Source: Escherichia coli (lineage in GTDB: Bacteria > Pseudomonadota > Gammaproteobacteria > Enterobacterales > Enterobacteriaceae). From it: DNA of 64,000 nt. Location of the stretch: NCBI RefSeq assembly GCF_024502345.1, contig NZ_JALDNN010000001.1, one strand, 5' to 3'. The notes under the pieces were generated by a model. The model did not search any database. It saw only the letters and a list, made by a program, of their open reading frames with translations, and was not told where the DNA came from. Shown one piece after another: positions 33,899 to 36,639 of this stretch. The translations under genes were made by a program, and so were the position numbers. Each line of letters opens with the position of its first letter. Positions within the stretch are counted from its first letter, which is position 1.

Positions 33899-34462
33899 AT
33901 GATGTCATCTCGTTTGATTATTGCGCTGATTATCATGCTCTTAGCCCCGGGTGTGCAGGCACACAATTTCGTCACTGGCAAAACGGTTACCCCTGTTTAT
34001 ATTCAGGAAGGCGGCGAGCTGCTTCTGAATAGCGACGACGAAATTCACTACCAAAAGTGGAACAGCACACAATTGGCGGGAAAAGTCCGCATTATCCAGT
34101 ATATCGCCGGGCGTAAGTCAGCGAAGAAGAAGAACTCACTGTTAATTAAAGCGGTTGAAGCGGCAAACTTTCCACAGGATCGTTTTCAGCCCACCACCAT
34201 TGTGAACACTGATGATGCCATCTTTGGTACTGGCTATTTTGTCGTTGGCAAAATCGAAAAAAATAAACGCCGCTATCCGTGGGCGCAATTCGTTATTGAC
34301 GGCAATGGACAGGGACGCGTTGCCTGGCGCTTGCCGGAGCAGAGTTCAACCATTCTGGTGCTGAATAAAACCGGGCAAATTCAGTGGGCAAAGGACGGCA
34401 GCCTGACGCCGGAAGAGGTAGATCATGTCATTGCGCTGGCGCAGAAACTGATCAATGAATAA
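33899..34462 (+). CDS. Exported (periplasmic) protein with cleavable signal peptide
   Basis: N-terminus MMSSRLIIALIIMLLAPGVQAH; 8-bp gap from the previous gene. Confidence 0.6.
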   Translation: MMSSRLIIALIIMLLAPGVQAHNFVTGKTVTPVYIQEGGELLLNSDDEIHYQKWNSTQLAGKVRIIQYIAGRKSAKKKNSLLIKAVEAANFPQDRFQPTTIVNTDDAIFGTGYFVVGKIEKNKRRYPWAQFVIDGNGQGRVAWRLPEQSSTILVLNKTGQIQWAKDGSLTPEEVDHVIALAQKLINE

Positions 34463-34492
34463 AAAATTCAAAGGATTGAGGGCGTTAGTGAG

Positions 34493-35563
34493 ATGAAGCT
34501 GGTTGAACACTACATCATGCGTGGTACGCGCCGTCTGGTGCTGATTATCGTCGGTTTTCTGATCTTTATTTTCGCCAGCTACTCCGCACAGCGTTATCTG
34601 ACCGAAGCGGCAAATGGGACATTAGCTCTTGATGTTGTGCTGGATATCGTTTTCTACAAAGTGCTGATTGCACTGGAGATGTTGTTACCTGTTGGTCTGT
34701 ATGTGTCAGTTGGCGTGACGCTAGGGCAGATGTATACCGACTCGGAAATTACCGCTATCTCTGCGGCGGGGGGCAGTCCGGGACGCTTGTACAAAGCCGT
34801 TCTTTATCTGGCGATACCGCTAAGTATTTTTGTCACCCTTCTGTCGATGTATGGTCGTCCGTGGGCTTATGCGCAGATTTATCAACTGGAGCAGCAGTCG
34901 CAGTCGGAGCTGGATGTTCGCCAGTTGCGGGCAAAGAAATTTAACACTAACGATAACGGACGAATGATCCTTTCGCAGACGGTTGATCAGGATAATAATC
35001 GCCTGACTGACGCGCTGATTTATACTTCTACTGCCAATCGAACCCGCATTTTCCGCGCCCGTTCGGTTGATGTGGTTGACCCATCACCCGAGAAACCGAC
35101 CGTTATGTTGCACAACGGCACTGCCTATCTTCTCGATCATCAGGGGCGTGACGACAATGAACAGATCTACCGTAATCTGCAATTACATCTGAATCCGCTG
35201 GATCAAAGCCCTAACGTCAAACGCAAAGCAAAATCGGTCACGGAGCTGGCACGCTCTGTATTTCCTGCCGATCATGCCGAACTGCAATGGCGGCAAAGCC
35301 GTGGCCTGACAGCATTGTTGATGGCGCTGCTGGCCATTTCATTAAGTCGGGTAAAACCGCGGCAAGGGCGATTTTCAACATTATTGCCACTGACGTTGCT
35401 GTTTATTGCCATTTTTTATGGCGGCGACGTCTGCCGTACGCTGGTGGCTAACGGCGCGATTCCCCTCATTCCTGGTTTGTGGTTAGTACCCGGACTCATG
35501 CTAATGGGCCTGCTGATGCTGGTCGCACGCGACTTCTCTTTGCTGCAGAAATTTTCCCGATGA
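34493..35563 (+). CDS. LptF/LptG-family (YjgP/YjgQ) permease, paralog 1
   Basis: By-eye similarity to LptF (LIALEMLLPVGLYVSVGVTLGQMYTDSEITAISAAG vs recalled LptF [34 protein letters not shown]). Confidence 0.75.
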   Translation: MKLVEHYIMRGTRRLVLIIVGFLIFIFASYSAQRYLTEAANGTLALDVVLDIVFYKVLIALEMLLPVGLYVSVGVTLGQMYTDSEITAISAAGGSPGRLYKAVLYLAIPLSIFVTLLSMYGRPWAYAQIYQLEQQSQSELDVRQLRAKKFNTNDNGRMILSQTVDQDNNRLTDALIYTSTANRTRIFRARSVDVVDPSPEKPTVMLHNGTAYLLDHQGRDDNEQIYRNLQLHLNPLDQSPNVKRKAKSVTELARSVFPADHAELQWRQSRGLTALLMALLAISLSRVKPRQGRFSTLLPLTLLFIAIFYGGDVCRTLVANGAIPLIPGLWLVPGLMLMGLLMLVARDFSLLQKFSR

Positions 35564-36639
35564 ATGTTTTCAGTCGCTATTTAATCCGTCATCTCTTTCT
35601 CGGTTTTGCCGCCGCCGCAGGGCTATTGCTGCCGCTTTTTACCACCTTCAACCTGATTAACGAACTGGATGATGTCAGCCCGGGCGGTTATCGCTGGACT
35701 CAGGCGGTGCTGGTGGTGCTAATGACCTTACCGCGCACACTGGTCGAACTTTCGCCGTTTATCGCCTTATTGGGAGGGATTGTTGGCCTGGGGCAGTTAT
35801 CGAAAAACAGTGAGCTTACCGCCATTCGCAGCACGGGGTTTTCTATCTTCCGTATTGCACTGGTGGCGCTGGTTGCCGGGATATTGTGGACTGTTTCGTT
35901 AGGCGCGATAGATGAGTGGGTGGCGTCGCCATTGCAGCAACAGGCGCTGCAAATCAAATCGACCGCCACCGCGTTGGGGGAGGACGATGACATTACCGGC
36001 AATATGCTGTGGGCCAGGCGTGGTAATGAATTTGTGACGGTGAAATCGCTGAACGAGCAGGGCCAGCCGGTGGGCGTGGAGATATTTCATTATCGCGACG
36101 ATCTCTCGCTTGAATCCTACATTTATGCACGCAGTGCCACCATTGAAGACGACAAAACGTGGATCCTGCATGGTGTGAATCATAAAAAATGGCTGAATGG
36201 CAAAGAAACGCTGGAAACATTAGATAATCTTGCCTGGCAATCGGCCTTCACCAGTATGGATCTTGAAGAGTTATCAATGCCGGGCAATACTTTTTCTGTC
36301 CGTCAGCTTAATCATTACATCCATTATTTGCAGGAAACCGGGCAACCCAGCAGCGAATACCGCCTTGCACTGTGGGAAAAACTGGGGCAACCCATCCTGA
36401 CCCTGGCGATGATTTTGCTGGCTGTGCCGTTTACCTTTAGCGCCCCGCGCTCGCCAGGGATGGGTAGCCGTCTCGCTGTAGGCGTCATCGTTGGCTTACT
36501 CACCTGGATCAGCTATCAAATCATGGTCAATCTGGGATTGCTATTTGCGTTAAGCGCACCTGTTACCGCGCTCGGTTTACCGATAGCGTTTGTGCTGGTG
36601 GCGTTGAGCCTGGTGTATTGGTATGACAGACAATATTAA
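35560..36639 (+). CDS. LptF/LptG-family permease, paralog 2 (ATGA overlap with paralog 1)
   Basis: Start MNVFSRYLIRHLFLGF; family motif LSKNSELTAIRSTGFS; membrane topology. Confidence 0.75.
   Translation: MNVFSRYLIRHLFLGFAAAAGLLLPLFTTFNLINELDDVSPGGYRWTQAVLVVLMTLPRTLVELSPFIALLGGIVGLGQLSKNSELTAIRSTGFSIFRIALVALVAGILWTVSLGAIDEWVASPLQQQALQIKSTATALGEDDDITGNMLWARRGNEFVTVKSLNEQGQPVGVEIFHYRDDLSLESYIYARSATIEDDKTWILHGVNHKKWLNGKETLETLDNLAWQSAFTSMDLEELSMPGNTFSVRQLNHYIHYLQETGQPSSEYRLALWEKLGQPILTLAMILLAVPFTFSAPRSPGMGSRLAVGVIVGLLTWISYQIMVNLGLLFALSAPVTALGLPIAFVLVALSLVYWYDRQY

Follow-up and report, generated by a model that had tools for sequence, protein, structure and literature searches.

The yghT-yghO region of the Escherichia coli chromosome (hyb-gss-pitB-yghT ... 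yghO-glcC), which lies within the 64-kb stretch of DNA analysed here (the window), encodes a second pair of LptF- and LptG-type permeases, designated LptF2 and LptG2. These proteins are probably the membrane components of a second lipid extractor of the Lpt type, which would serve the accessory sphingolipid locus in which the two genes reside (spt-acpR-cerR-aasR and yghO) and would be driven by the housekeeping ATPase LptB. The proposal draws on sequence comparison, on gene context and on an analogous pair of proteins in Caulobacter crescentus, a system for which the central idea, an exporter that borrows LptB, has already been published.

LptF2 and LptG2 are LptF- and LptG-family permeases

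Profile searches placed both proteins well above the curated equivalog cut-offs of the families in which the initial annotation of the window had put them. LptF2 scored 318.4 bits against the LptF model TIGR04407 (Pfam PF03739; cut-off 230), with residues 4-345 aligned to positions 2-346 of the 347 in the model, and LptG2 scored 308.5 bits against the LptG model TIGR04408 (Pfam PF03739; cut-off 240), residues 5-355 matching positions 2-350 of 351. For scale, the housekeeping proteins of E. coli K-12 score 385 bits (LptF) and 456 bits (LptG) against the same models. These end-to-end hidden Markov model (HMM) alignments leave no domain-sized deletion in either protein. In the PDB, LptF2 and LptG2 match best to LptF and LptG chains from LptB2FG(C) complexes, and their hydropathy profiles display three plus three hydrophobic segments flanking a hydrophilic stretch of ∼170 residues, the pattern seen in K-12 LptF and LptG. 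On these sequence comparisons, the status of the two proteins as true members of the LptF and LptG families is not in doubt.

The pair resembles the housekeeping E. coli LptB2FGC complex (LptF b4261, LptG b4262) in family, in length, in the predicted 3+3 transmembrane (TM) layout around a putative periplasmic domain and in the coupling of the lptF and lptG genes. In contrast, LptF2 is only 29% identical to K-12 LptF, LptG2 only 28% identical to K-12 LptG, and the two genes reside in the accessory yghT-yghO locus, whereas the housekeeping pair lies beside pepA. LptF2 and LptG2 are also dispensable, being missing from K-12, and as K-12 is viable without them they are not the essential lipopolysaccharide (LPS) extractor. 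Both sets of paralogues pass the equivalog cut-offs, with the result that the NCBI annotation pipeline (PGAP) names two lptF and two lptG genes in most E. coli genomes. The use of these names for the second pair (34493-36639) is over-specific, and the double annotation can mislead essentiality and drug-target analyses.

The ratio of non-synonymous to synonymous divergence (dN/dS), computed between the window and three other Escherichia lineages (L010, L014 and L043), was 0.04-0.065 for lptF2, 0.04-0.046 for lptG2 and ∼0.03 for spt. The permease genes are thus under strong purifying selection across Escherichia and are maintained where they are present.

The permease pair accompanies sphingolipid synthesis genes

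In the window the stop codons of lptG2 (36639) and spt (36674) are separated by only 34 bp, placing the pair beside the genes for sphingolipid synthesis. The two operons converge, tail to tail, with a hairpin between the stop codons that is likely a bidirectional terminator; the pair is therefore not directly upstream of the serine palmitoyltransferase operon, as had initially been stated. The breadth of this association was assessed by scanning one genome per species, which together with three further loci gave 83 loci containing relatives of LptF2 that range from close to distant and come from Enterobacterales, Pseudomonas/Azotobacter, Betaproteobacteria, Nitrococcus, Thiotrichales and Desulfobacterota. 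The flanks of these loci were searched with the proteins of the E. coli locus and with those of the Pseudomonas-type locus. The outer limit of the clade is not sharp: at 34-38% identity some loci are linked to sphingolipid genes (L092), and one, from Methylomarinovum, lacks spt within 8 kb. Two short metagenomic contigs (L007 and L009) yielded no usable gene context.

The lptF2 and lptG2 genes are adjacent and co-directional in all 83 loci, and spt, acpR, cerR and aasR are all present in 62. At least one sphingolipid synthesis gene lies in the examined flank of 74 loci, and the other nine end at a contig edge. The view that the pair is a dedicated exporter for the lipid of the locus thus stands as regards the sphingolipid linkage; export itself is argued by analogy with the Caulobacter pair.

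Two locus architectures were evident. In the 42 loci of the Enterobacterales type yghT/S/R, yghQ, hyp274, ytfJ2 and lptF2/lptG2 lie next to the spt operon. The other type, found in Pseudomonas, Azotobacter, several Betaproteobacteria, Nitrococcus and others, combines lptF2/lptG2 with genes for an MsbA-like fused ATP-binding cassette (ABC) exporter, an NTP-transferase, a DAGK_cat kinase, a 321-residue protein and, often, an Asp/Arg hydroxylase (examples are L008, L032, L045-L062 and L092, the last of which adds a sulfotransferase and glycosyltransferases). The LptF2 and LptG2 proteins of the Pseudomonas/Azotobacter-type loci are orthologous to those of E. coli (52-61% identity) and are encoded beside orthologous spt-acpR-cerR-aasR and yghO genes. 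These loci differ from the E. coli locus in encoding the MsbA-like exporter where E. coli has the MOP protein YghQ, and the DAGK_cat, NTP-transferase and hydroxylase proteins where E. coli has Hyp274 and YtfJ2; genes resembling yghR/S/T occur in only some of them. This second architecture suggests different sphingolipid head groups served by the same type of extractor.

No LptB paralogue was detected in the 83 loci, the best LptB-like match being 35% identical, against a background of generic ABC similarity of 25-35%, and 22 of the 32 LptB-like matches fall within the fused MsbA-like gene. Searches of the same loci by tblastn with K-12 LptC and LptA likewise revealed no relatives of either protein. 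The pair therefore follows sphingolipid genes whatever head-group genes accompany them, and never brings its own motor.

Conservation of the LptB-docking helices

The window was found to encode no dedicated ATPase. The ABC signature [LYF]SGG[QEMK] occurs in no open reading frame (ORF) of the 64 kb, and the gene annotation around the pair in a genome of 99.3% identity is consistent with this, extending to the whole window the initial observation that an ABC ATPase is not encoded nearby. The only ORFs with a GxxGxGK[ST] Walker A motif are YghT, YghS and YghR.

The coupling helices through which LptF and LptG contact LptB were defined by Simpson et al., who showed that Glu84 of LptF and Glu88 of LptG are strictly conserved and critical (PMC5082905). 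When the K-12 proteins were aligned with 84 sequences each of LptF2 and LptG2, the equivalents of both residues were glutamate in 84 of 84 sequences. The glycines corresponding to Gly92 of LptF and Gly96 of LptG are also invariant, and Ala90 of LptF and Leu89 of LptG are invariant or nearly so. Within the 16-residue coupling helix, LptF2 from the window matches K-12 LptF at 9 residues, compared with 29% identity overall. These data, which come from sequence comparison, fit the use of LptB by LptF2 and LptG2.

Precedent and relationship to the Caulobacter system

The Spt, AcpR and AasR proteins of the locus from E. coli BL21 have been expressed, are active and make 3-oxo-sphinganine, and the same paper counts yghO and the reductase gene as the other genes for dihydroceramide (PMC9386255). 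A transport role for the second LptC, LptF and LptG copies encoded in the sphingolipid region of Caulobacter was proposed in 2024 (PMC11324152). More recently, Uchendu, Isom and Klein (bioRxiv 10.64898/2026.04.12.717747, April 2026) reported that Caulobacter lptF2, lptG2 and lptC2 can be deleted only in Δspt or ΔcpgB backgrounds, that LptF2 co-purifies with LptG2, and both with the single housekeeping LptB, and that Caulobacter has no second lptB. The same preprint displays the E. coli UTI89 locus beside the Caulobacter locus (Fig. 2B) and notes in its text that lptF2/lptG2 occur in many alpha- and gammaproteobacterial sphingolipid loci. Dependence on sphingolipid synthesis and physical binding of LptB are thus properties of the Caulobacter proteins, a non-orthologous analogue.

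The relationship between the two pairs was explored with four Caulobacter sequences machine-read from the PDF of Supplementary Fig. 1 of the preprint, in which a few residues may be wrong. In BLASTP comparisons E. coli LptF2 is closest to E. coli LptF (84 bits), followed by Caulobacter LptF (51) and Caulobacter LptF2 (40). With an HMM of the gamma/betaproteobacterial LptF2 clade the scores were 175 bits for E. coli LptF, 76 for Caulobacter LptF and 45 for Caulobacter LptF2, and the corresponding LptG2 model gave 275 bits for E. coli LptG, 80 for Caulobacter LptG2 and 71 for Caulobacter LptG. Against the NCBI LptF and LptG models, E. coli LptF2 and LptG2 (318 and 308 bits) are far more canonical than Caulobacter LptF2 and LptG2 (144 and 176 bits, respectively). 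Small, distance-based neighbour-joining trees with the paralogue as root place the gamma/beta '2' clade with the gammaproteobacterial housekeeping LptF (bootstrap 100) and LptG (bootstrap 95); both Caulobacter copies lie outside and pair together at 55% (LptF) and 70% (LptG). By these sequence criteria the E. coli pair is not orthologous to Caulobacter CCNA_01214/CCNA_01213, and the gamma/beta and Caulobacter pairs probably arose through two independent duplications.

The two systems share a second LptF/LptG pair inside a sphingolipid synthesis locus, the lack of a second LptB and the proposed mechanism, an LptB2-F2G2 extractor. They differ in that Caulobacter possesses LptC2, which has no counterpart in the E. 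coli locus, and CPG2 head-group genes, whereas E. coli encodes YghQ, YghR/S/T, Hyp274 and YtfJ2.

Gene layout and distribution of the locus

The three ORFs of the initial annotation, ytfJ2, lptF2 and lptG2, are all intact on the + strand (Table 1), and the translational coupling proposed for the permease genes is reflected in an ATGA overlap of the lptF2 stop and lptG2 start codons (CCCGATGAATG). The gaps between consecutive + strand genes from yghS to lptG2 range from -4 to 45 nt, and yghS-yghR-yghQ-hyp274-ytfJ2-lptF2-lptG2 has the appearance of a single gene string. No promoter was assigned, as shuffled sequence contained promoter-like sites at least as often.

Table 1. Features of the yghT-yghO region, in window coordinates
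Feature	Coordinates	Strand	Description
yghT	29302..29994	-	P-loop protein, dTMP-kinase-like; divergent from yghS; Walker A, no ABC signature
yghS	30168..30881	+	P-loop protein, dTMP-kinase-like; heads the + strand gene string; weak TIGR00041 match (22 bits); Walker A only
yghR	30913..31671	+	P-loop protein, dTMP-kinase-like; paralogue of YghS and YghT
yghQ	31717..33066	+	MOP/Wzx-type (Polysacc_synt) membrane protein; candidate inner-membrane flippase
hyp274	33066..33890	+	All-helical, presumably cytoplasmic protein with a possible CHAD-like fold
ytfJ2	33899..34462	+	187 residues; YtfJ family; signal peptide (predicted exported)
lptF2	34493..35563	+	356 residues; LptF-family permease
lptG2	35560..36639	+	359 residues; LptG-family permease
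hairpin	36637..36671	.	GC-rich, 16 pairs (10 G-C), between convergent lptG2 and spt
spt	36674..37846	-	Serine palmitoyltransferase
acpR	37846..38094	-	Specialised acyl carrier protein
cerR/epi	38126..39041	-	NAD-dependent reductase; private +1 insertion (A at 38936)
aasR	39038..40726	-	Acyl-AcpR synthetase (fatty acyl-AMP ligase)
yghO	41130..42203	+	Bacterial ceramide synthase/N-acyltransferase homologue; private 1-bp deletion at 42160

A 4.9-kb query around ytfJ2-lptF2-lptG2 matched 4,196 of 5,426 complete E. coli genomes, 4,086 of which cover at least 80% of the query; the locus is without representation in the remaining ∼23%, K-12 included. The closest complete genome is 99.3% identical to the query, and identity of at least 99% over the region was observed in only 16 of the 4,196. 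In this closest genome the NCBI pipeline names the three genes 'YtfJ family protein', 'lptF' and 'lptG', and beyond lptG lists spt, an acyl carrier protein, an NAD-dependent epimerase-family protein, a fatty acyl-AMP ligase and yghO. In K-12 MG1655 (3129043-3132408) the region from hyp274 to aasR, which includes ytfJ2, lptF2 and lptG2 and is equivalent to window positions ∼33000-41200, is gone, and a copy of IS5 (insH9) lies exactly between yghO and a truncated yghQ. The orphan yghO/Q/R/S/T genes of K-12 are explained by this IS5-associated loss.

Two genes of the lipid pathway are frameshifted in the window. In cerR one extra A at 38936 converts GGGCAGTAC to GGGCAAGTAC, and the frame is lost after ∼35 codons; the insertion occurs in none of the 4,120 complete E. 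coli genomes that carry the gene, the best match covering 110 of 111 bases. It represents either a strain-private pseudogene or a sequencing error. In yghO a 1-bp deletion at 42160 (GATCGATGCGC to GATCGAGCGC) alters the last ∼35 codons and yields a protein of 357 rather than 380 residues; it is found in none of the more than 4,100 complete genomes carrying that gene.

Rearranged products of the permease region were observed in other strains (variant proteins P0003-P0006 and P0014-P0016). The ytfJ2 and lptF2 genes are in the same frame, 30 nt apart (34460-34495), and a few assemblies contain 553-residue YtfJ2-LptF2 read-through ORFs, presumably through loss of the stop codon. Other strains have a 450-residue product in which LptF2 is fused to a PHO4-family (PitB-like) domain, implying that the genes from yghT through ytfJ2 were deleted, and truncated LptF2 variants of 238-243 residues occur in Shigella and many E. 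coli. Judged from these sequences, the locus is eroding in several lineages.

Accessory proteins of the Enterobacterales-type locus

YghR, YghS and YghT are three paralogous P-loop proteins of ∼230-250 residues whose best family match, to dTMP kinase, reaches 22-32 bits where the cut-off is 83, and it is on this very weak similarity that PGAP calls them 'dTMP kinase'. They are probably not thymidylate kinases. The proteins are conserved in most Enterobacterales sphingolipid loci, and copies of 35-43% identity occur in some Pseudomonas loci. A role as kinases in head-group chemistry would be more plausible than one as a motor. No functional work on yghQ/R/S/T was found in the literature. YghQ displays a weak match to an NCBIfam MOP flippase model, and its Hafnia orthologue matches Pfam Polysacc_synt. 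Hyp274, which is confined to Enterobacterales, has neither signal peptide nor TM segment; Pfam searches with the protein alone and across 25 homologues returned no match, and it was a fold search only that pointed to CHAD.

YtfJ2 scores 213 bits against TIGR01626 (cut-off 151), matches PF09695 with an E value of 2.3e-59 and is 55% identical to K-12 YtfJ over its full length. It is thus, like YtfJ (E. coli b4216) and the YtfJ_HI0045 family in general, a single-domain protein with an N-terminal signal peptide, here MMSSRLIIALIIMLLAPGVQA preceding HNF. It differs from the housekeeping protein in being a second copy placed in a sphingolipid locus, where it is found in 41 of the 42 Enterobacterales-type loci. 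Fold comparison of a model indicates a thioredoxin-like fold, with no sign of the β-jellyroll (OstA-like) typical of LptC and LptA, and a PDB search with the sequence of YtfJ2 returned nothing significant. In contrast to the thioredoxin-like oxidoreductases TlpA, DsbE, CcmG and ResA and to peroxiredoxins, to which its sequence identity is only 5-17%, YtfJ2 has neither a CxxC motif nor a peroxidatic cysteine. The protein is cysteine-free, which excludes thiol-based redox chemistry. Its most conserved motif, in an alignment of 25 sequences, is Ala70-Gly71-Arg72-x-Ser74-Ala75-Lys76, and no cysteine occurs among the invariant or near-invariant columns. The dN/dS of ytfJ2 is 0.12 against L043, the only lineage used because a one-codon indel and ungapped pairing excluded L010 and L014. 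A literature search found no functional work on E. coli YtfJ, and the family is without an established function.

A proposed route and competing explanations

In the proposed route a ceramide-type lipid would be synthesised on the cytoplasmic side of the inner membrane, possibly modified by the kinase-like proteins YghR/S/T, and then flipped across the membrane, for which YghQ is the candidate flippase. The LptF2-LptG2 heterodimer, docking two copies of housekeeping LptB through the conserved coupling helices, would pull the lipid out of the inner membrane's outer leaflet and would probably hand it over to the shared LptC/LptA/LptDE bridge. For E. coli we infer each of these transport steps, the identity of the lipid, the use of LptC, LptA and LptDE, and the roles of YghQ, YghR/S/T, Hyp274 and YtfJ2.

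Several observations weigh against this proposal. As the characterised Caulobacter proteins are not orthologues of the E. coli pair, the function of the latter is read by analogy and from gene context. The literature searches returned heterologous over-expression only, and no report of a sphingolipid made by E. coli from the native locus. The locus is dispensable, as its absence from K-12 and about a quarter of complete genomes indicates, and if the cerR and yghO frameshifts are real the exporter may be without substrate in this strain. Finally, the pair retains lipid A phosphate contacts (Arg33 and Lys317 of LptF, Lys62 and Arg136 of LptG), making an LPS substrate compatible with the sequence.

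The last point bears on the suggestion that LptF2 and LptG2 form a spare or condition-specific LPS extractor rather than a sphingolipid exporter. Lipid A contact residues were listed by Tang et al., who also reported that the K34E substitution is lethal in housekeeping LptG (PMC6744409). Of the cationic residues that contact the lipid A phosphates (Arg33 and Lys317 of LptF; Lys34, Lys40, Lys62, Arg133 and Arg136 of LptG), four, namely Arg33, Lys317, Lys62 and Arg136, are kept as Lys or Arg in the LptF2/LptG2 clade (in the window Lys317 of LptF is Arg, Lys62 of LptG is Arg and Arg136 is Lys). Phe26 of LptF and Leu26 of LptG within the cavity are retained as well. Both proteins exceed the LptF/LptG equivalog cut-offs, are named accordingly by PGAP and belong to a clade nearer to the gammaproteobacterial housekeeping LptF/G than to Caulobacter LptF2/G2, all of which would suit an LPS extractor. 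In contrast, the basic patch on the periplasmic end of TM1 in LptG has become acidic or neutral in the LptG2 clade (Lys34 to Asn/Asp/Thr, Lys40 to Asp/Glu and Lys41 to Asp; Asn, Asp and Asp, respectively, in the window), Arg133 is mostly Leu, as in the window, and the acyl contact Ile66 is Asp or Glu. The Lys34/Lys40/Lys41 pattern is a genuine difference from E. coli LptG, but as an argument it is weak and does not decide the substrate, as P. aeruginosa housekeeping LptG also lacks these lysines (neutral or acidic residues there), and it was dropped as a substrate test. Also against an LPS extractor is the linkage to spt or bacterial ceramide synthase genes, which is effectively universal over at least three proteobacterial classes, whatever the head-group genes. 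In addition, lptFG is essential in K-12, a strain without the second pair. An LPS-dedicated role is therefore improbable. A different challenge to the sphingolipid extractor proposed here concerns its motor, the initial annotation having offered YghR/S/T as an alternative to LptB. The P-loop proteins are the sole Walker A proteins of the window, and yghS and yghR share a gene string with lptF2 and lptG2. Set against this, they combine Walker A with no ABC signature and show dTMP-kinase-type matches that are weak, and no relative of solved structure was found by a PDB sequence search with YghR. Furthermore, many loci with LptF2/LptG2 yielded no homologue (examples are Azotobacter, P. putida ASAD, Nitrosomonas, Rosenbergiella and Sodalis), and the LptB-docking residues are retained in the permeases. 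That YghR, YghS or YghT powers the pair in place of LptB is extremely unlikely, and YghR/S/T were rejected as energy source; the LptB branch gained from the co-purification in the Caulobacter analogue and from the invariant glutamates.

YtfJ2 was initially described as an exported partner of the permeases, and it could in principle be their obligate periplasmic partner, as a stand-in for LptC2 or a factor for lipid or head-group hand-off. The predicted signal peptide supports export; in 28 of the 42 Enterobacterales-type loci ytfJ2 immediately precedes lptF2 on the same strand, it is the third duplicated gene of the locus beside lptF2 and lptG2, and no LptC2 is encoded there. The gene is, on the other hand, absent from all 41 non-Enterobacterales loci with LptF2/LptG2, and in the rearranged loci of Rosenbergiella, Serratia sp. 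M24T3, Sodalis and Erwinia it stays with yghQ and hyp274 or stands alone by spt, not with the permease genes; nor, as noted above, does the family come with a functional literature in E. coli. An LptC/LptA-like component was rejected in view of the thioredoxin-like fold and the lack of LptC/LptA matches in the 83 loci. The partner role is thus distinctly unlikely, and on comparative grounds YtfJ2 is a lineage-specific, predicted periplasmic accessory rather than a core subunit. The remaining explanation is that the exporter is idle, or the whole locus decaying, in this strain because the substrate pathway is broken. The two private frameshifts, the loss of the locus at an IS5 insertion in K-12, and the truncated LptF2 and pitB-lptF2 fusion products of other strains and Shigella are in line with decay. 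Conversely, lptF2, lptG2 and ytfJ2 all retain their full length in this strain, purifying selection on the permease genes is strong in Escherichia, at least 80% of the region is kept in 4,086 genomes, and two single-base indels common to no other genome could be sequencing errors. An idle exporter in this strain is unlikely, and would in any case be compatible with sphingolipid export by LptF2/LptG2 in the species as a whole.

Implications for sphingolipid export

A more far-reaching combination of these elements can be envisaged, in which the independent gamma/beta duplication means that Lpt extractors were recruited to sphingolipid export at least twice, YghQ, the three P-loop kinases, the CHAD-like protein and YtfJ2 assemble and export a phosphorylated sphingolipid that would be new to E. 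coli, and YtfJ2 acts as a periplasmic specificity or hand-off factor. Taken jointly these propositions are speculative and unlikely all to hold; were they to do so, the orphan housekeeping YtfJ would gain a function in the movement of envelope lipids. With the E. coli locus the mechanism could be tested where the Lpt machinery is best understood, and the locus is present in about three quarters of complete E. coli genomes, pathogens and BL21 included. The head-group genes of Enterobacterales point to a lipid structure not yet described.

Further observations on the locus

Synonymous divergence (dS) between the window (30168-37846) and L010, L014 and L043 is uneven across the locus, being 0.13-0.15 for acpR and 0.47-0.77 for lptG2 and hyp274. 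Divergence this high and uneven points to old alleles or to recombination inside the locus. In the Hafnia alvei locus a gene for a 4'-phosphopantetheinyl transferase (L003, 17854-18579) adjoins yghO, whereas in E. coli glcC directly follows yghO and there is no such gene. The Hafnia enzyme may be a dedicated activator of the specialised acyl carrier protein.

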